NCBI GenBank assembly: GCA_014686905.1 | Contig: GCA_014686905.1_4093.1 | DNA from: a phage | Direction: 5' to 3' (one strand) | Length of the DNA stretch: 64,000 nt | Shown here: positions 51,037 to 58,773 of the stretch, one piece after another | Position numbering within the stretch: the first letter of the stretch is position 1 | How the letters are laid out: each line of letters opens with the position of its first letter | The notes under the pieces: model-generated | Database searches by the model: none | What the model was told of the DNA's origin: nothing | The model's input: only the letters and a program-made list of their open reading frames with translations | Program-made: the position numbers and the translations under genes

Positions 51037-51891
51037 ATGAAACTTTATCTAATCGTTGACTACAATAAGGATTATGCTGGTAACTTCACCGAAGATTCGG
51101 ATGGATATTGCACATCGACTAATGTCAATGTACGTAGCAGTAGTGCTCATGAACATGAATCTTGTAAAAATCTAAAAGATTTTATCGCATACCGAGCATT
51201 TGAAAAGAACTTCTGCCGCAGTAGATATTCGAAGTTTGAGTACCCGTTAATTGATGTTCCTGATGATTTAATGTTCCAGTTAATGCTAACTGGAGTTCAA
51301 GATTATGATTACATAGCATATAATCATATTACTAAGAAAATTTATATTGGTACATCATCACATGACACTTCTATGTATGCATCATGCCCAGATGATCGAA
51401 TGAATGATAGAAAATCATACTATAGTGGATCAGTTGGTTTAAATGATTCATTAAATAAAAATATATTCTTTGAGTATGTTTATGATTACCATCATGAGAA
51501 AAAAGAACGTGAAGATTACTGTATAGCAATTGATAGTACTAATGGTTATGAAGACGTGAAAGAAGCACTTATGCCGTACATTATTGAAAAGTACTACAAA
51601 GATTTTCAGTACTGTAGTAATTTTCTAATCAGAAATTCTATTATAATCGGTCGCCAATCTAGTGCATACTCTCAGTACTATAATGATTCACCAGTAGCAT
51701 CGGCAAATGAAATGTGTGATATTTTACAAATTCCACGTGAAGATATGGCATTCATTTTTACATCTTTTATTGAAGATGATGAGTTGTATATTAAAAATAA
51801 ACACCGTTTCATGCCAAGCAAGATTGAGGTTATTCGAAGTTTTAGTGTTGATATACTAACAAATTTCACAGAAAAAACCGAATATAACTGA
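51037..51891 (+). CDS. hypothetical protein (284 aa), possible distant FQxS relative
   Basis: RBS GGAGA, ATG 51037; motif DDLMFQLMLTGV. Confidence 0.5.
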   Translation: MKLYLIVDYNKDYAGNFTEDSDGYCTSTNVNVRSSSAHEHESCKNLKDFIAYRAFEKNFCRSRYSKFEYPLIDVPDDLMFQLMLTGVQDYDYIAYNHITKKIYIGTSSHDTSMYASCPDDRMNDRKSYYSGSVGLNDSLNKNIFFEYVYDYHHEKKEREDYCIAIDSTNGYEDVKEALMPYIIEKYYKDFQYCSNFLIRNSIIIGRQSSAYSQYYNDSPVASANEMCDILQIPREDMAFIFTSFIEDDELYIKNKHRFMPSKIEVIRSFSVDILTNFTEKTEYN

Positions 51892-51920
51892 GACAAATGA
51901 TAAGTTAATGATATAATATA

Positions 51921-51953
51921 AGGTGACAACATAATATGTTGGTCACCTTTTTT
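51921..51953 (+). terminator. rho-independent terminator
   Basis: hairpin AGGTGACAACAT-AAT-ATGTTGGTCACCT followed by TTTTTT. Confidence 0.8.
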
Positions 51954-52496
51954 AATCCTGAAAGGTTCCCATAAGGAAATGATTAAAAGCCTAATCCACT
52001 CGAAAATGTAGAGGGTAGATGAGTAGTCCTTTCAGTACGAACAGCAGATGAAACCCGTTAGATGATGGCATAGTTTGAACCACTCACGGCAATGCGGCTG
52101 TATAAAGAACTCCAATAGGATAAAGAGAGTTCCTCGATAGACATATAAGGATCGCACCTTACCAATTATCTAAGGGAGATTTCATAAGAAATATGCGGTC
52201 GGAATTATACAATATAGTTGCGTCCAAATTTTGTGAAATCAAATACAAGTACTGGTCATATGGTATTTGTATTATGTGTCGGGATGTTTAAGACCGACGA
52301 CCGTTGCTACAAGAACCGCGATAGAGAGAAACAGAGCAACCCGCTTTCGTCTCGTAAGAGAATTCGTGATATGAACTATGTGAAGGCCACCAGCGTCAAA
52401 TTTTTTTGTTCTTTCCCCTGCGGGGGGGGGATGAAATATGCTCAAGCAAACCCCGTCAATATTAATTAAAAGAAAATAGTACTTGTAGAATTAGAC
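51954..52496. other. ORF-poor, relatively GC-rich island with G9 homopolymer
   Basis: ~540 bp without RBS-led ORF between strong terminator and next promoter; GGGGGGGGG at 52418-52426. Confidence 0.5.
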
Positions 52497-52571
52497 ATGC
52501 GTAGCATGATAATTCTACTGATGTTGATGCAATCAACGTCACGTATATTCATTGATGTTTCCATAGGAATA

Positions 52572-53117
52572 ATGATGGCATTTATTAGAAAAGAAAAAAC
52601 TGTTACTTATAAAACTTTGAATTTTGATGATTGCATTAATCAATCACAAGACGAAGATATCTTTACTGGATATGTGGTTATTAAAGAAAAAGGATGCATT
52701 TCTTATATAAAGGAATTACAAAATGGAATTGAAGTGACTTCAGTTAAATTACTTCCTACTCAAAAACCAACAATATCAAAAGCCCAGTATGGTAATTATT
52801 TTGAAGAAAGATATAGTAATAATTCAATAAGTGTTAAGGCTCATATTATTAAAGGAGAACTAGAAGGAGAATATAGAAAATACAACCCACAAGGAAAATG
52901 TGTTTGGGTTAAATACTTCAATTCAGGATATGATGTAACATCTGAAATTATAGAATTCTTGGGTTTAAAATGTACCCCTGAGACTATTCATGATTACAAG
53001 TTCAATACTGAAGAAGAGTTTAATCTGATGATGCGTTACGGTTCACATTTTAAATTTTTATATGAATATAACATTGACAGTAGTACTTTTGATAAGATAG
53101 TACACAACTGTCTCTAA
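52572..53117 (+). CDS. hypothetical protein (~181 aa)
   Basis: RBS AGGAA then tandem ATGs 52572/52575; track start 52497 lies too close to promoter. Confidence 0.5.
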   Translation: MMAFIRKEKTVTYKTLNFDDCINQSQDEDIFTGYVVIKEKGCISYIKELQNGIEVTSVKLLPTQKPTISKAQYGNYFEERYSNNSISVKAHIIKGELEGEYRKYNPQGKCVWVKYFNSGYDVTSEIIEFLGLKCTPETIHDYKFNTEEEFNLMMRYGSHFKFLYEYNIDSSTFDKIVHNCL

Positions 53118-53133
53118 CAAAAGGAATTATATA

Positions 53134-53655
53134 ATGTCGAAGAAGGATGCTTCGAAAAAACATTCAGTACATTTCAGTACTGGAAAGGACAACTGGACAA
53201 CTCCCAAAGATTTCTTTGAAGATTTGGATGAGTTATGGGGATTTACACTTGATGCTGCTTGTGTTGATGAGACTGCATTGTGTGATAACTATTTTACACC
53301 TGATGATAATTCTCTTGAACAAGACTGGGGAAAAAATATTGTTTGGTTAAATCCCCCATATAGTGATTTAAAAACTTGGTTAGCCAAGGCAGTAGATGCG
53401 TATAATAAAGGTGCTACAGTACTGATTCTAGTACCATCCAGGACTGATACAATAGCATTTCAGGAATATGCAGCCAAAATATGTGATTGTATTTGTTTTA
53501 TCAAAGGTAGATTACGTTTTGGTATTCCAGAAGAACCTGATAAGAAAACAGATTCAGCACCATTTCCTTCGTGTCTTATAGTCCTTGATAAGTACTTAAC
53601 CACTGCTAAAATCAATTATCTTAAATCTCTTGGATTGGTGATGAAGAATTTATGA
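53134..53655 (+). CDS. phage-type Dam-like DNA N6-adenine methyltransferase
   Basis: NPPY catalytic motif (VWLNPPYSD) and overall layout of small phage Dam-family MTases; RBS AAAGGA. Confidence 0.7.
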   Translation: MSKKDASKKHSVHFSTGKDNWTTPKDFFEDLDELWGFTLDAACVDETALCDNYFTPDDNSLEQDWGKNIVWLNPPYSDLKTWLAKAVDAYNKGATVLILVPSRTDTIAFQEYAAKICDCICFIKGRLRFGIPEEPDKKTDSAPFPSCLIVLDKYLTTAKINYLKSLGLVMKNL

Positions 53656-54185
53656 AAGAAACATGTATATTATCATTTATGAGATGTAACCCAGTCCACA
53701 ATGGTCATGGTTTAGTTTTTGAAAAGGCCAAAACATTACAAGAACAGTACAATGCAGATTTGAAAATATATCTAAGCACCAGTACTGACAATATAAAAAA
53801 CCCACTCCCACCTGAACTAAAAATGTATTATACAGAGGGATTCTATCCTTCAGTGCAAGAGAACATCTACACAGAAGACAATCTATTTGATATAATGAGA
53901 GAACTGGATGGAAAGTACTTAGATGTTCTTTTCATTTGTGGTTCTGACCGTATTGATTCTTTTCAAAAAACTCTTGACATGTACAATGGTAAGTTGTATA
54001 ATTTTTGTAGTATAAAAGCAATTCAGGCAGGTATTGACCGTAATGTAAGTCAATATAGCTCAACACAAATGCGTAACTTCGCAAAAAATGAAGATTTTGA
54101 TAGTTTTCGTGAGTTTTTACCTGGAAATGACGAGGACTTAAAAATACAATTATTTGAAGACGTTATAAAATACATGAGGAAATAA
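53652..54185 (+). CDS. HxGH-motif nucleotidyltransferase (NMN adenylyltransferase-like)
   Basis: NPVHNGHGLV (HxGH) near N-terminus and SSTQMR (SxTxxR-like) near C-terminus; ATGA coupling to MTase. Confidence 0.55.
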   Translation: MKETCILSFMRCNPVHNGHGLVFEKAKTLQEQYNADLKIYLSTSTDNIKNPLPPELKMYYTEGFYPSVQENIYTEDNLFDIMRELDGKYLDVLFICGSDRIDSFQKTLDMYNGKLYNFCSIKAIQAGIDRNVSQYSSTQMRNFAKNEDFDSFREFLPGNDEDLKIQLFEDVIKYMRK

Positions 54186-54187
54186 TT

Positions 54188-54481
54188 ATGTCAGTACTGT
54201 TCAAAACCAATCCAGTACTTTGGGATCAAAATGAGCAATCAGGATTTCGTTCCATCCATGTTGAATACAAAGGTAATACTGTAGTTGCAATTATTGCTAA
54301 CAAAACTCTAGGAAACTGGACTGCACAGGTTGTTCCTATGGGATATTCTTACACATCTGATGAGGTACAATTCCTGGCTGAACTATATCGCCAAGTGCCG
54401 TTTATCATTAATGTACTAGAAGGTAATGATACATTATCACATGCAGATGTGATTAATTTTCTTGGAAACTTGCATGTGTGA
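54188..54481 (+). CDS. hypothetical protein (97 aa)
   Basis: RBS AGGAAATAA, ATG 54188. Confidence 0.5.
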   Translation: MSVLFKTNPVLWDQNEQSGFRSIHVEYKGNTVVAIIANKTLGNWTAQVVPMGYSYTSDEVQFLAELYRQVPFIINVLEGNDTLSHADVINFLGNLHV

Positions 54482-54761
54482 TGAAATAAATCTTACAGGA
54501 TATTTTTTACAAGAATCAATGATTAAATTTAGTGAAAAATTTTCAGTACTGGATGGTATCGAAATGTGGCATGTCAAACCACTGTTCCACACTTTCAGTA
54601 AAGAGCACAAAATGTTATTGACTGAAGCGAGTAAATCAAATAACATATGTGAAATCAAAATTGGTGTAAATGTCTATAAAGGGATGGTTATCTTTTTTGA
54701 CAATAACAGCAACTACTTTTATATTGTTAAGGAGCATTACGTTGACAAATACAAATACTAA
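54474..54761 (+). CDS. hypothetical protein (95 aa)
   Basis: ATG 54474 overlapping upstream stop. Confidence 0.4.
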   Translation: MCDEINLTGYFLQESMIKFSEKFSVLDGIEMWHVKPLFHTFSKEHKMLLTEASKSNNICEIKIGVNVYKGMVIFFDNNSNYFYIVKEHYVDKYKY

Positions 54762-55356
54762 TACATACTTCCGTTATCTTCGCTTAGGTCTTTCCCTACG
54801 TCCGATCCGTGGAAAGTGCGATTCACTCGCTGACCTTGACTATGCATATGCATTACATCATGAAGGTGTACAGTATGTATTGGGTGATTATGGTGAATTT
54901 GAAGAAACAAATGACAGTACTGGAATTAATGCTGGTGTAGAAAATCTTAACAACATTGCTAACAGTTCTCGCCATGACATTGTGTTACAGATTCAAAACT
55001 TTATTGAGCAGCACACAGGTAAACGTGTTTGGTGCTATGTCGGCACTGATGCACAAATGTCAATTTCATTCGGTAACGATGAAGGATATGTTGCACAGCT
55101 TATTATGGATTTTGAATCTGAAGAGAAGTTTTTAGAATTCAAAGAAAAGATTATTCAGTCACTTGTTGATATGGGTATCCCCGAAGATAAAATGCCAGAA
55201 GTTCAAAACATTGATGAATTTGTTTTGATTCCATCTGATGAGAAATATGATGCAATGTTTACTGCCCTTAATATTCCAGGAGTTATTGTGGAGTACTTTG
55301 ATGATGGTGATGATAGTATCTATATCGATCTAGATGACGATGACGACGATGAATAA
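54742..55356 (+). CDS. hypothetical protein with poly-Asp C-terminal tail
   Basis: RBS AAGGAG 54729-54734 then TTG 54742; ends DLDDDDDDE; start uncertain. Confidence 0.4.
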   Translation: MTNTNTNTYFRYLRLGLSLRPIRGKCDSLADLDYAYALHHEGVQYVLGDYGEFEETNDSTGINAGVENLNNIANSSRHDIVLQIQNFIEQHTGKRVWCYVGTDAQMSISFGNDEGYVAQLIMDFESEEKFLEFKEKIIQSLVDMGIPEDKMPEVQNIDEFVLIPSDEKYDAMFTALNIPGVIVEYFDDGDDSIYIDLDDDDDDE

Positions 55357-55363
55357 TGTACAT

Positions 55364-55390
55364 AGCCCGACATAAGTTCGGGCTATTTTT
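55364..55390 (+). terminator. rho-independent terminator
   Basis: hairpin AGCCCGA-CATAAGT-TCGGGCT followed by ATTTTT. Confidence 0.8.
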
Positions 55391-55402
55391 GTAAGGGGAT
55401 AT

Positions 55403-55678
55403 ATGAATTATAAAGTTCTACAATATACATACAGTGTTTTGTTTGATTTACATCATAATGGCAGAAATACCAACACAGTTCGAGAAGACTCATTCACATT
55501 TAAAATATGGATTGAATACTTAGAGATGATACGTGCATACTTTATTAACACTGAAATAGTTATTCATGGTAAAAAACAGAAGGTACTACATGTTAATAGT
55601 TATGGTGGTAGATTAAAACTATCATATTTCAATAATAATATAAATGAAATATATTCTATTGATTTGGCAGATTTATGA
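55403..55678 (+). CDS. family-D small protein
   Basis: N-terminal LQYTYSVLFDL block shared with four downstream paralogs. Confidence 0.55.
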   Translation: MNYKVLQYTYSVLFDLHHNGRNTNTVREDSFTFKIWIEYLEMIRAYFINTEIVIHGKKQKVLHVNSYGGRLKLSYFNNNINEIYSIDLADL

Positions 55679-55941
55679 ATTATAAAGATTTCCTACTAAC
55701 ATACAAGATTATTCGAGATTTAGCACACGACAATGATAGCCCTAGTCTAGAAGACACATGCACTGAAATGATTCATACGATTCGTGGTAAGATTAAAAAA
55801 AAATTCAGTACTGTTATTATTGGTGATGACCATGCAGAATTTTCTGATATAATCATTAGACGTGATGGTAAAGTTGAGGTTCAGTACTACACTGATTTTG
55901 GATTTACCAGTATTCCGTTGGAGATATTCCCTTGGGATTAA
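55675..55941 (+). CDS. family-D small protein
   Basis: LLTYKIIRDL; ATGA coupling. Confidence 0.55.
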   Translation: MNYKDFLLTYKIIRDLAHDNDSPSLEDTCTEMIHTIRGKIKKKFSTVIIGDDHAEFSDIIIRRDGKVEVQYYTDFGFTSIPLEIFPWD

Positions 55942-56243
55942 ATTTAAATGATATACAATTCACTTATAAGATCCTATATGATTTGTATGATGTATACCTT
56001 GTTAGTAACAACATAGGTTCACATAACCGATCCAAAGAACAACCATTTATTGATTTATATATTGAGTACTTAGATTCAGTAGGTGAATATATAAAAAAGA
56101 ATTACAGTACTTTTATCGATGGAAATGATAAATTCGATTTCTATGGTGTGCAATCATATAATGGTATAATCCATGTTCAATTTCAGGAAATAACCGATAG
56201 GGGATTTATCGAGATTAAAGTTGTGAAGTTGGTGAATTTATAA
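55932..56243 (+). CDS. family-D small protein (non-ATG start)
   Basis: IQFTYKILYDL; no in-frame ATG anywhere in ORF, TTG start assumed. Confidence 0.45.
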   Translation: MGLNLNDIQFTYKILYDLYDVYLVSNNIGSHNRSKEQPFIDLYIEYLDSVGEYIKKNYSTFIDGNDKFDFYGVQSYNGIIHVQFQEITDRGFIEIKVVKLVNL

Positions 56244-56253
56244 GAGGTTACAT

Positions 56254-56565
56254 ATGTTATTAAATGATATACAATTCACATACAAATTTTTGTATATCCA
56301 ATACGCTACGGTTGATGCTGGCGAATATCTCTACAGTGAAATCTATCGTTCGGTATGGATAAAGTTTTTGGATGAATTACATGAATATTACCATGATTTG
56401 TGTATAGTTCGTGATAATAAAATATACAAATTCCGCGATATTGTTAGTCATAGCGGTAAGCTACGATTGGAATTAAGTACTGATAGTGATGTTGATTGGA
56501 TTGGTGTAAATTTACTGGAGTTGGAGAATGAAAAACAACTTAAAGGAAATACAAGTATTTTATAA
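56254..56565 (+). CDS. family-D small protein
   Basis: IQFTYKFLYIQ. Confidence 0.55.
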   Translation: MLLNDIQFTYKFLYIQYATVDAGEYLYSEIYRSVWIKFLDELHEYYHDLCIVRDNKIYKFRDIVSHSGKLRLELSTDSDVDWIGVNLLELENEKQLKGNTSIL

Positions 56566-56812
56566 ATTCTTATACTTATCATATGTAAAAGATGAGTACT
56601 ATGAAAGTGTGTATTATTTTTTATGGCAACATTACCGTACTATAGTAAGAGATTTATATATAGGAAAATCTATCATATCCAATGGTGAAAAATGTACCTG
56701 TACGGATGTAGTTAGTTTTAATGGTTCTTTAACACTGTGTTTCAGATGCGATAATAATAGTGGGTCATTTTCATTAAACGTATATCAGTTAGAAGGAATA
56801 AATTTTGAATAA
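56528..56812 (+). CDS. family-D small protein
   Basis: IQVFYKFLYLSY. Confidence 0.5.
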   Translation: MKNNLKEIQVFYKFLYLSYVKDEYYESVYYFLWQHYRTIVRDLYIGKSIISNGEKCTCTDVVSFNGSLTLCFRCDNNSGSFSLNVYQLEGINFE

Positions 56813-57005
56813 ATGTCCATATTGTAACAGTACTCAATTAGCTCGTTTCCGTTTAGATTCAGACTGGGCGACTGGTGCTGGTGATTTCTTCCCTATTAAT
56901 GATGATGCGGAATACACCGAAGAACAGCACAAAGATTTTGATAAATCATGGCGACCTGACATTGAGTGCATTTATTGCCTTAATTGTGAGCGTGTTCATG
57001 ACTAA
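56805..57005 (+). CDS. C4 zinc-ribbon small protein
   Basis: CPYCNS ... CIYCLNC. Confidence 0.5.
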   Translation: MNKCPYCNSTQLARFRLDSDWATGAGDFFPINDDAEYTEEQHKDFDKSWRPDIECIYCLNCERVHD

Positions 57006-57261
57006 AGCTGAACTAATAGTTCATACATATAAAATGATATCAAGTACTGAGTTATCATATAGTGCAGATAATCCAGTACTGGATTATTTTGTTGAATTAT
57101 TGAAAGAGCATTATATTGGTAAATCACTGAATATTAATAATATTAATTTCACTATAACGGATGTGGGACCAGGAAAAAACGTACTAATTGTATGTATTAC
57201 TTCAACTGGTAACCCATTATACCCAATATCAGTAATTTTTGAGGTATTAGGTGATTTATGA
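57001..57261 (+). CDS. hypothetical protein (86 aa)
   Basis: internal ATG of track ORF 56875..57261 overlapping upstream stop. Confidence 0.45.
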   Translation, partial: TKAELIVHTYKMISSTELSYSADNPVLDYFVELLKEHYIGKSLNINNINFTITDVGPGKNVLIVCITSTGNPLYPISVIFEVLGDL

Positions 57262-57548
57262 ATATCATATTAATACAAAAAACATATACTCTACTGATGA
57301 AAGAATATACTAATACTTATGATGAAAAGTGCAGTGCAAATCATAATATGTATGAATTCATTACTCAAGAGTACAGGGATTATATATATGCTGTGTTAGT
57401 GGGTAGATATTTCAGTACTAGAAAATACCCAAAACTTCAAATAGTTGATGTTTCTTTTTATTTCAATGGTCATATTACTATTCATAGTTTAGACCAAGAT
57501 TCAACAACGTACTTAAACTTTTCATTTGATGAGGTAATATTTTTATGA
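57258..57548 (+). CDS. hypothetical protein, possible family-D relative
   Basis: IQKTYTLLMKEY N-terminus. Confidence 0.5.
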   Translation: MNIILIQKTYTLLMKEYTNTYDEKCSANHNMYEFITQEYRDYIYAVLVGRYFSTRKYPKLQIVDVSFYFNGHITIHSLDQDSTTYLNFSFDEVIFL

Positions 57549-57721
57549 GAACAGTATTTTTTATCTGGAGTCTTTTTTCATTGGCAGTACTGACAGTATG
57601 TGGGATTTGTTTCCTTTCATCAATTAATACTTGGTATATCAATTTACTATTTCCATTTGTCGGTGTTGGTTTAGGGTTTACTTTGCATAGTGTATGTAAG
57701 GATTACAATGAGAACAAATGA
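57545..57721 (+). CDS. putative small membrane protein (58 aa)
   Basis: two hydrophobic stretches (FFIWSLFSLAVLTVCGICFL, LLFPFVGVGLGFTL); below track cut-off. Confidence 0.35.
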   Translation: MRTVFFIWSLFSLAVLTVCGICFLSSINTWYINLLFPFVGVGLGFTLHSVCKDYNENK

Positions 57722-57986
57722 AGTACTTATTGCTGAAACAATGAAGATGATTTACAATATCACGTCAGCACAGAATATGCCCTATCCAACTAAGTCTTTA
57801 TTGAGGACTGTGTATCTGGGGATAGTACAGGAGTACTACAAATCCAAGCACCGAAGCATTATTAGTGTTTATCGTGATTATGAAAGGATTCGTATTTTAT
57901 TCTGGAACAAGAATCGAGTACGTTCTGAATGTGACCTAGTGGACTTTAAATTAGAGAATCTTTATTGCTATAAACAGGGACAATAG
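57708..57986 (+). CDS. hypothetical protein
   Basis: track ORF 57690..57986, internal ATG. Confidence 0.4.
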   Translation: MRTNEVLIAETMKMIYNITSAQNMPYPTKSLLRTVYLGIVQEYYKSKHRSIISVYRDYERIRILFWNKNRVRSECDLVDFKLENLYCYKQGQ

Positions 57987-58044
57987 TTTAATTCATGATA
58001 TAATAATGGGTAAGGAACAATAATTAACACAAGGAGTGTGTGAA

Positions 58045-58773
58045 ATGCTTGACCGTATCCGTTTCGCTACAGAGATGGCGAATGAATTAAACATGGCAAA
58101 TTTCCAAATGTTAACATCAGTAATGGCTGAACATGCATGTGCTTATTCTGTAAGTGGTGTGCAGTGTGGTCAGGAGAATATGTTAGCAGATGTTTATAGT
58201 GAAGTGCAAAGTAAGCAATATAGTGTAAAGACATATAAGGATAAGTTTGTTAGTCTTTATATGAACGAAGATATTGCCGAAGACCGTAAATTCACTGATT
58301 TTATTATTGAACGCCGAGTATCAGGTGTATCTAATCCTAATGCATCAAGCGAGGAAGTTTTTGCAGAAGTACTGAAAGATATATACGAAAATGAATTAAA
58401 AAGTAAGAATCATTACAATGTACGTGAAACTAACACAGTGCTCTTGGGATATGATGAAGACGAAGAATACTATTATTTTCGTATGACTGAAGTTCCTTTT
58501 GAATACAAATCTCCATATACAACTACAGTGAAAGAATTTACTGAAAAAAGTAAAAACTTCATGAAGCATGAAGGAAATCGTTGTAGTATAAATGGTTATG
58601 ACGAAAATGGCATTCACATTTATGAATGGGTTCACCCAAATTGTCAGACATACACTCGTTGCTTGAAAAAACGTTATAATTTAGAAGAGCATGAATCATT
58701 CTATTTTAAAGTTAAGAAGCAAGGTTATACTCGCCCCGCCGATTCTGAATTGATGGGTATGATATATTTCTAA
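58045..58773 (+). CDS. hypothetical protein (242 aa)
   Basis: RBS AAGGAG 58030-58035 then ATG 58045; track starts at upstream GTG. Confidence 0.55.
   Translation: MLDRIRFATEMANELNMANFQMLTSVMAEHACAYSVSGVQCGQENMLADVYSEVQSKQYSVKTYKDKFVSLYMNEDIAEDRKFTDFIIERRVSGVSNPNASSEEVFAEVLKDIYENELKSKNHYNVRETNTVLLGYDEDEEYYYFRMTEVPFEYKSPYTTTVKEFTEKSKNFMKHEGNRCSINGYDENGIHIYEWVHPNCQTYTRCLKKRYNLEEHESFYFKVKKQGYTRPADSELMGMIYF

Follow-up and report, generated by a model that had tools for sequence, protein, structure and literature searches.

A Dam-family methylase and a HIGH-superfamily nucleotidyltransferase as inherited neighbours in Rak2-like jumbo phages, with a candidate structured RNA class upstream

GATC sites in DNA are methylated by Dam-family (PF05869) enzymes of phages T1, HP1 and VT2-Sa. 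Established phage nicotinamide mononucleotide (NMN) adenylyltransferases (NMNATs) occur either as Nudix fusions accompanied by NAMPT (NARP2) or as RNK fusions accompanied by PnuC (NARP3). Here, we analyzed a 64,000-nucleotide stretch of phage DNA (GenBank assembly GCA_014686905.1, contig GCA_014686905.1_4093.1; hereafter the window), in which genes for a Dam-family methylase and a standalone HIGH-superfamily nucleotidyltransferase (NTase) adjoin at positions 53,134 to 54,185. A sequence-only reading of this locus had called the pairing unusual and proposed translationally coupled enzymes serving NAD salvage or a DNA-modification pathway that needs a nucleotidyl donor. Our analysis indicates that the gene pair is real but ordinary and already annotated, that the mechanistic suggestion is not supported, and that a multi-copy covarying RNA of ~500 nt immediately upstream is a far better candidate for novelty than the pair itself.

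The region shares ~97% nucleotide identity with Escherichia phage 121Q and some 30 other Asteriusvirus genomes, and 121Q carries the same two genes as gp417 ("DNA methyltransferase") and gp418 ("cytidyltransferase").

53134..53655, plus strand: Dam-family methylase (PF05869), 173 aa, ATG start, NPPY at residues 73-76; orthologue of 121Q gp417 and CBB_72.
53652..54185, plus strand: standalone HIGH-superfamily nucleotidyltransferase, 177 aa, ATG start; orthologue of 121Q gp418 and CBB_73.

As had been noticed from the letters, the TGA stop codon of the 173-aa NPPY methyltransferase overlaps the start of the 177-aa protein in an ATGA at 53652-53655; the start codon of the NTase is further backed by the conservation of M1, K2, T4 and C5 in its orthologues.

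The pair proved to be part of the public record already, in dozens of deposited genomes of Rak2-like jumbo phages, and can hardly be called unusual. It is annotated with equivalent labels in Salmonella phage SE_PL, Xanthomonas phage XbC2, Erwinia phage pEa_SNUABM_50 and Pectobacterium phage CBB, and is present, unnamed, in Klebsiella phage RCIP0023 and in RaK2. The labels in use are "DNA (N-6-adenine) methyltransferase" for the first gene and "cytidyltransferase", "cytitidyltransferase" or "nucleotidyltransferase" for the second. All six of these genomes keep the order g415-g416-Dam-NTase-g419-g421 (g numbers as in 121Q), and the junction between the Dam and NTase genes is conserved no better than the junctions with unrelated flanking genes. 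Because the whole six-gene block keeps its order, the adjacency of the two enzymes is no evidence of coupling.

Beyond the Rak2-like phages the association dissolves. In a profile scan for the NTase across IMG/VR, which yielded 80 loci, a Dam-family open reading frame (ORF) lay within 4 kb only in 121Q and RaK2; none of the 78 non-Rak2 loci, which encode multidomain NTases of 277-1,142 aa, had one within that distance, also when a Dam profile hidden Markov model was applied. Likewise, no Dam neighbour of the NTase was found in three cyanophage loci and one PA5oct-like locus. A reverse locus scan with the single Dam sequence returned 121Q alone, and the neighbourhoods of Dam relatives were taken from their encoding contigs: one relative with 48% identity (L094) lies in another Rak2-type block, one with 46% identity on a jumbo-type contig (L095) is followed by an unrelated 242-aa gene, and a marine one with 41% identity (L096) is followed by an IMPDH-like gene. 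Moreover, a fused methyltransferase occurred in none of 65 long NTase homologues.

The stop/start overlap, which had been taken as a sign of special coupling, is ordinary gene packing of this genome: of 61 junctions in a 27-kb stretch of 121Q, 29 show an overlap, and no junction type is more frequent than the 4-nt overlap (11 of 61). In Mimasvirus and Eneladusvirus the two genes do not overlap at all, with 18-24 nt between them. Collectively, none of the four tests (synteny, recurrence, fusions and overlap) supports a dedicated two-enzyme module, and the proposed shared pathway gives way to background synteny confined to the Rak2-like clade.

One such pathway would be DNA hypermodification, with the NTase activating a group as a nucleotidyl conjugate or nucleotidylating DNA, and the Dam-like enzyme completing a complex adenine modification. 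The adjacency and the close spacing or overlap conserved inside the Rak2-like clade would suit this scheme. The class to which PAPS reductases belong, Rossmann-like and ATP-utilising, is related to the HIGH NTases. PHROGs lists Dam-family fusions with PAPS-reductase-like domains in other phages (phrog_33262). However, the pair never recurs independently or as a fusion, and the plain NPPY/SAM (S-adenosylmethionine) architecture of the methylase is typical of simple N6-methyladenine formation. The hypermodification pathways known from phages rely on enzymes of other classes. Furthermore, these genomes are routinely sequenced, and the phAPEC6 and Sharanji papers speak of no unusual bases, only of protective methylation. 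We regard hypermodification by the pair as extremely improbable.

The identification of the first protein as a Dam-like methyltransferase was borne out by profile searches, with a match to PF05869 (Dam) at E=6.6e-32 and 110.9 bits (cut-off 28.1) and to phrog_111 at 3e-56. The TIGR01712 equivalog was narrowly missed (92.7 bits, cut-off 97.05), which places the assignment at the level of the family. PF05869 was present in all 120 listed homologues, and N73, P75 and Y76 of the catalytic (D/N)PPY motif, together with F37 and D40 of the SAM-binding FxxD motif, were invariant across 22-25 diverse ones. We are therefore confident in predicting a small, single-domain Dam-family N6-adenine methyltransferase in which the NPPY motif and the motif for SAM binding are both intact.

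The predicted fold of the methylase is closest to PCIF1/CAPAM (PDB 6irx), the eukaryotic mRNA cap-specific adenosine N6-methyltransferase, at 16% sequence identity. Iyer et al. 2021 had found the family of AMM43637.1 to be closest to PCIF1 and suggested that it might methylate RNA; we verified that AMM43637.1 is CBB_72, the orthologue of the methylase, and our model reproduced this likeness independently. The authors of the phAPEC6 and Sharanji reports assign the methylase to protective DNA methylation. We favour DNA as the substrate and retain action on RNA, suggested by the PCIF1-like fold, as a minority possibility; to that extent the fold leaves RNA as a possible target of small phage "Dams" more generally. 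The Phytophthora DAMT protein, which contains a different domain, was not used as evidence for DNA activity of PF05869.

The second protein carries the motifs HNGH (residues 16-19), GSDR (97-100), YNG (111-113) and SSTQMR (136-141), the first and last being the HxGH and SxTxxR-like motifs that the sequence-only reading had picked out. Whereas the methylase exceeded its family threshold, the NTase scored 14.6 bits against PF01467 (CTP_transf_like), under the gathering cut-off of 21, alongside a clear match to phrog_3041 ("cytidyltransferase", 5e-56). Its relatives match PF01467 more readily: 33 of 38 standalone members at E<=0.1 (best 4.2e-9) and 44 of 65 long ones at E<=1e-3. Alignment of the 38 standalone members gave the consensus GRxNPP(T/H)xGH, in which the first position of the motif is H or T, and the conserved motif near the C-terminus was ISxTxxR; H19, N50, R100, N112, S136 and R141 were invariant, and the block GSDR...YNG...YxF was specific to the family.

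The AlphaFold2 model of the NTase (pLDDT 88.6, pTM 0.84) adopts a five-stranded alpha/beta Rossmann-like fold, which together with the superfamily motifs confirms the general placement proposed earlier. Foldseek against the PDB was led by phosphopantetheine adenylyltransferase (PPAT; E 2e-6, TM ~0.65), which accounted for the top 29 matches, followed by NMNAT and NadD. Searching PDB sequences required a diverse profile of the 38 members, a profile of close relatives having returned chance ribosomal-protein matches only; the diverse profile matched PPAT over its full length (E 1e-5), NadD at 7e-4 and MJ0541 at 3e-3, while its NMNAT matches covered the N-terminal ATP-binding part only. Sub-threshold matches among the 38 members were distributed over NadD (27), NMNAT (16), NadR (15), PPAT (10) and FAD synthetase (8), and some members weakly matched the citrate-lyase ligase model. 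Neither the NTase nor any of the 38 relatives reached the NMNAT equivalog thresholds (TIGR00482, TIGR01526, TIGR01527 and PRK01153); TIGR00482 gave 18.5 bits on the NTase against a cut-off of 112.45, with weak sub-threshold matches in 8-27 of the 38 relatives. TIGR01510 (CoaD) was matched weakly, in 10 of the 38 (best 1e-5). The CTP-using enzymes TagD/GCT, CCT and ECT were not the closest relatives of the NTase in structure or in sequence.

From these comparisons we conclude that the NTase is an adenylyltransferase-like HIGH NTase belonging to an uncharacterised phage-specific clade, with NadM/NMNAT and PPAT as its nearest relatives. Neither outcome that the sequence-only reading had named as refuting it, a protein lacking the Rossmann-like fold or one from an unrelated family, was observed. 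The nearest relatives are not true cytidylyltransferases, and no equivalog test singles out an NMNAT. The label "cytidyltransferase" reflects an inherited Pfam family name rather than evidence for CTP use. A second label, "ribonucleotide reductase A" or "NrdB ribonucleotide reductase A", is attached to the NTase in KM507819.1 (121Q gene 418) and MH107246.1 (Synechococcus phage S-B64), and is evidently an annotation error propagated between phage records.

A word-index homologue search reached close relatives of the NTase only, and family size was measured by an exhaustive profile search, which returned 3,623 cluster representatives (E<=1e-3; clusters at 50% identity), many of them the N-terminal domain of a 500-1,200-aa protein. 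By tblastn, the NTase occurred in 559 phage records, ~450 of them cyanophage. Fusion partners among the 65 long homologues included DUF5824 (16 of 65) and Zeta_toxin/AAA_33 P-loop kinases (6 of 65), with occasional Hint/intein modules. The architectures of the fused proteins, P0042, P0058, P0104 and P0047 among them, are reminiscent of cofactor enzymes of the NTase-kinase type or of polyvalent proteins that are injected. The cytidyltransferase label is unsupported for a large phage family, of ~3,600 clusters and represented in hundreds of marine cyanomyovirus genomes, and a sizeable phage enzyme family stands unassigned at a time when NAD-centred conflict between phage and host is an active field.

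The leading place of PPAT in both the structure comparison and the full-length profile matches raises the possibility of a role outside NAD metabolism, as a PPAT-like or FMN-adenylyltransferase-like enzyme or one acting on another cofactor or a phage-specific metabolite, again independently of the methylase. As in PPAT, the motif of many family members starts with Thr rather than His (TxGH); the weak matches to FAD synthetase and citrate-lyase ligase models point the same way, and the P-loop kinase fusions recall PPAT-DPCK as much as NMNAT-RNK. On the other side, no biological rationale is known for a PPAT role in phages. This alternative, which contests the choice of substrate only, is unlikely in our estimate.

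The cyanophage homologues suggest a different role again, as a virion-packaged effector injected at the start of infection, where it might, for example, replenish a nucleotide cofactor or act against a defence signal that is based on nucleotides. Homologous domains were detected by mass spectrometry in purified virions of S-SCSM1 and two other cyanophages, their genes lying among structural genes (PMC9602691), and many of the long NTase homologues look like multidomain "polyvalent" proteins. The NTase considered here is instead encoded by a short ORF of its own within a block of non-structural genes, and the main text of the virion proteome report on phAPEC6, a 97% identical phage, names no cytidyltransferase among 62 virion proteins. 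For the phage in question, we consider packaging improbable.

Given that NAD salvage had been suggested for the pair, we compared the NTase with the NAD genes of these phages. Unlike the NARP2 and NARP3 NMNATs, which are fused to Nudix or RNK, the NTase has neither fusion and no adjacent NAMPT or PnuC, and sister genera carry a separate module: in CBB, GAP32, XbC2, the Eneladusviruses, SE_PL-like phages, EJP2 and RaK2-like phages, NadM-Nudix and NAMPT genes lie ~20 kb downstream, in addition to the Dam and NTase pair. NAD salvage by the pair as a module is thus not borne out. At the syntenic site of 121Q (218420-219952), genes for ClpP-like and HslV-like proteases replace the NadM-Nudix and NAMPT genes of CBB (54982-58189); Sir2-like and standalone Nudix genes come after them. 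No Asteriusvirus was among the top 40 tblastn matches to NadM-Nudix or NAMPT (down to 38-39% identity), so that the absence of the module from 121Q covers the syntenic site and those matches, not divergent NAMPT, NadR or PnuC genes elsewhere. It thus seems that the NAD-reconstitution module was lost from the Asteriusviruses or exchanged for other genes. That the NTase is kept with or without the module argues against its being a committed part of it, while a separate role as an NMN or nicotinic acid mononucleotide (NaMN) adenylyltransferase would not be contradicted by this distribution. Phage PA5oct, which has a standalone NTase homologue, up-regulates the host pncA-pncB1-nadE operon, that is, the Preiss-Handler route minus the NadD step; this and the presence of cyanophage homologues in virions are circumstantial and point in different directions. 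The EJP2 paper makes no mention of NAD genes.

Taken together, these results lead us to regard as moderately likely that the pair comprises two independently acting enzymes, co-transcribed neighbours in an inherited gene block, of which the methylase protects DNA and the NTase makes a dinucleotide-type cofactor. We infer all mechanistic steps of this reading; what is shown are the families and folds of the enzymes, the conservation of their motifs and the statistics of their gene neighbourhoods. The two genes would be neighbours through a densely packed same-strand block whose order is inherited across Rak2-like jumbo phages. The methylase would most likely methylate adenines of the phage DNA and thereby blunt host restriction. 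Judging from its motifs and fold, the NTase would transfer a nucleoside monophosphate, most likely AMP from ATP, to a small molecule that carries a phosphate. Our best guess is NMN or NaMN, which would make the NTase an auxiliary enzyme forming NAD(+) or nicotinic acid adenine dinucleotide (NaAD), with 4'-phosphopantetheine as the next candidate.

Several points weigh against this interpretation. The substrates of both enzymes are predictions, and the NTase falls short of every equivalog threshold applied. No motif known from NMNAT or PPAT corresponds to the GSDR...YNG...YxF block, and the substrate could accordingly differ. An NMNAT role would be redundant in the sister genera that already possess NadM-Nudix, and the virion association of the cyanophage homologues is odd for a housekeeping cofactor enzyme. 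Finally, the pair is kept together down to 33% NTase identity, which synteny accounts for but which would also be compatible with a functional link.

Upstream of the pair, the gap between g415 and g416 (51892-52496, 605 nt) is the only intergenic gap of more than 100 nt among the 61 junctions, the next being 75 nt. Its GC content is 0.39, compared with 0.34 for the window, and its nucleotide sequence is conserved across genera whose flanking proteins are only ~40% identical. The following features were recognised in and beside it:

51888..51917, plus strand: promoter-like site with a TG-extended -10 (TGATATAAT), the -10 at 51912-51917; consensus scan.
51922..51953, plus strand: hairpin (GGTGACAAC...GTTGGTCACC) and T-run; alignment of six orthologous gaps.
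51985..52460 (approximate), plus strand: core of a multi-copy structured non-coding RNA (ncRNA), supported by covariation; single copy in the window.

The core of ~480 nt contains long invariant blocks, and the whole element measures ~480-600 nt. By blastn, the core matched at 284 places spread over 71 phage records, with 4-5 in each genome and almost all of them unannotated, and an nhmmer profile search of the fetched loci yielded 26 distinct copies. Among those outside the window are L098:2484-3154 (CBB 174.4-175.1 kb), L129:2276-2802, L103:219-817, L174:74-662 and L208:5621-6100. A search of viral contigs with the pattern GAAACNGNNNAACCCGCNT gave mostly chance hits among the matches listed, and the true copies were those extracted by nhmmer. 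A TGnTAnAAT box stands ~55 nt upstream of 24 of the 26 copies, and one copy in CBB, which is antisense to the gene on either side, has a promoter-like box and a terminator-like hairpin of its own. The box resembles the CBB promoter class described as "TGAAACG -35 / classic -10" (PMC5259590).

RNAalifold applied to 23 copies predicted 66 pairs, 37 of which showed compensatory double changes. We edited this model by adding one pseudoknot helix by eye and removing one non-covarying helix, which resulted in 68 pairs in 15 helices. In the edited model, 97.9% of the paired cells could pair, compared with 37-45% in slid registers; double changes affected 39 of the 68 pairs (11-15 in slid registers), and the covariation score was 0.47 (0.06-0.12 in slid registers). 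None of 500 shuffles reached the observed values. The abundance of G-U pairs indicates that the plus strand is transcribed. Single-sequence folding of the window copy was no more stable than that of shuffles (z = -1.03 on the plus strand, +0.67 on the minus strand), and as single-sequence stability is unremarkable, the case for structure rests on covariation.

Known RNA classes did not account for the element. Rfam 15 gave no match for the window copy (E<=1) and none at gathering score for five other copies; group I and II introns, GOLLD, ROOL, OLE and RNase P were among the families rejected. A tRNA or tmRNA was rejected likewise, ARAGORN finding nothing, as was a protein-coding gene, translated matches being scattered over many frames on both strands. 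No mention of the element was found in the literature searched. Collectively, the element is a candidate new class of large ncRNA specific to Rak2-like jumbo phages.

About half of the copies (alignment A9, columns ~531-565; L098 CBB copy 2, L190, L160, L174 and L208) carry an inserted terminator-like hairpin and T-run, for example CAGTACTTTAATTAGTACTTTTTTT, standing just 5' of a conserved CCCC...GGGGGATGAA hairpin; the insertion is missing from the window copy and from the other copies upstream of g416. The family may accordingly have two 3'-end architectures. As there is no terminator between the RNA and g416 in this phage, the RNA may double as a 5' leader for the transcript of g416, Dam and NTase, although its other copies do not accompany these genes.

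In one further reading, the PCIF1-like methylase and the NMNAT-like NTase would together modify RNA 5' ends. The NTase would, for example, build an NAD-like cap from pppA-RNA and a mononucleotide, or adenylylate the end, whereupon N6-methylation of the adenosine next to it would fall to the methylase; the targets would be phage transcripts, possibly including the upstream structured RNA. If true, viruses of prokaryotes would have their own analogue of cap-adjacent m6Am (N6,2'-O-dimethyladenosine) formation, and NAD-like caps could be made enzymatically after transcription. We know of no enzyme that performs post-transcriptional NAD capping. PF05869 is named and annotated as the phage DNA Dam family, and prophage Dams 45-50% identical to the methylase have no NTase neighbour; conversely, the NTase family occurs without such a methylase in cyanophages and PA5oct-like phages, and the remaining 3-4 copies of the structured RNA in each genome do not adjoin the pair. 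We judge joint action on RNA 5' ends to be quite improbable, and the fuller proposition of a cap-like modification module of Rak2-like jumbo phages, with targets that could include transcripts starting with the structured RNA, to be very improbable.

Returning to the reading of two independent enzymes in an inherited block, we examined the limits of the transcription unit in which they lie. The neighbouring features are as follows:

52497..53117, plus strand: g416-like gene, 206 aa from the first ATG; phrog_16210 at 3e-94.
54188..54481, plus strand: g419-like gene, 97 aa; phrog_14956 at 2e-47; conserved downstream neighbour, syntenic in six genomes.
54462..54761, plus strand: g420-like gene, 99 aa; annotated in 121Q.
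54742..55356, plus strand: g421-like gene, start as in the 121Q annotation, acidic C-terminus; phrog_15575 at 1e-92.
55362..55386, plus strand: terminator-like hairpin, 9-bp stem with 5 GC pairs, and T-run; consensus scan.

The start of g416 in the 121Q annotation lies 9 nt further in than the first ATG. This gene is the conserved upstream neighbour of the methylase, with orthologues at the same position in the six Rak2-like genomes, and g421, syntenic in all six, is the last gene ahead of the terminator-like hairpin; profile and PDB searches revealed no Pfam or PDB relative of either protein. Among the six genomes, homologues of g420 were confined to RCIP0023 and RaK2, consistent with conservation in closer relatives only.

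The promoter-like site stands directly after the g415 stop codon and is a candidate start of a transcription unit that would contain the RNA element and possibly the Dam and NTase genes. Just downstream of its -10 box (51912-51917) lies the putative terminator of g415. The stem at 51922-51953 differs wholly in sequence among six phage genera and is nevertheless fully compensated in each, always followed by T6-7, which suggests that this hairpin is probably the intrinsic terminator of g415. At the other end, the hairpin at 55362-55386 is a candidate end of the g416-Dam-NTase-g419-g421 unit. On these consensus scans, the pair would probably be co-transcribed with g416, g419, g420 and g421, from the promoter-like site at ~51.9 kb to that hairpin. 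Farther downstream, at 55403-56812 on the plus strand, five small ORFs (88-103 aa) follow in a row, several with common N-terminal motifs such as "LNDIQFTYK(I/F)LY" and "NYK..L.TY"; the shared motifs suggest a tandem paralogous gene family.

In comparison with known systems, the methylase closely resembles the prophage Dams of PF05869/TIGR01712, which are of similar size (136-180 aa), single-domain and NPPY-bearing; it is 45-50% identical to "phage N-6-adenine-methyltransferases" from Staphylococcus, Clostridium and Bacillus prophages, from which it differs in being encoded by a lytic jumbo phage. PCIF1 is 3-4 times larger than the methylase, and its helical and WW domains, which bind the cap and Pol II, are missing from the phage protein. 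NadM and the archaeal NMNAT (PDB 2qjt, 1f9a) are 12-16% identical to the NTase, which reaches no equivalog model of theirs. CoaD/PPAT shares the size and single-domain build of the NTase, as well as the TxGH variant common in its family; the identity is 14-18%, and the RGLR of PPAT is replaced by GSDR. The cyanomyovirus "cytitidyltransferase" or NMNAT-like virion protein (T4-GC0190; S-SCSM1 ORF91, P-TIM40 gp183) contains a domain of the NTase family, 30-38% identical over ~170 aa, in this case inside a 360-440-aa protein encoded among structural genes with no Dam neighbour. The closest counterparts are the orthologous pairs CBB_72/CBB_73, GAP32_068/069, XbC2_56/57 and SE_PL gp333/gp332, which have the same order and flanks, and those of PBECO4, phAPEC6 and Sharanji, which are as in 121Q. 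From the 121Q-like pairs, whose annotations are homology labels only, the pair described here differs in nothing material.

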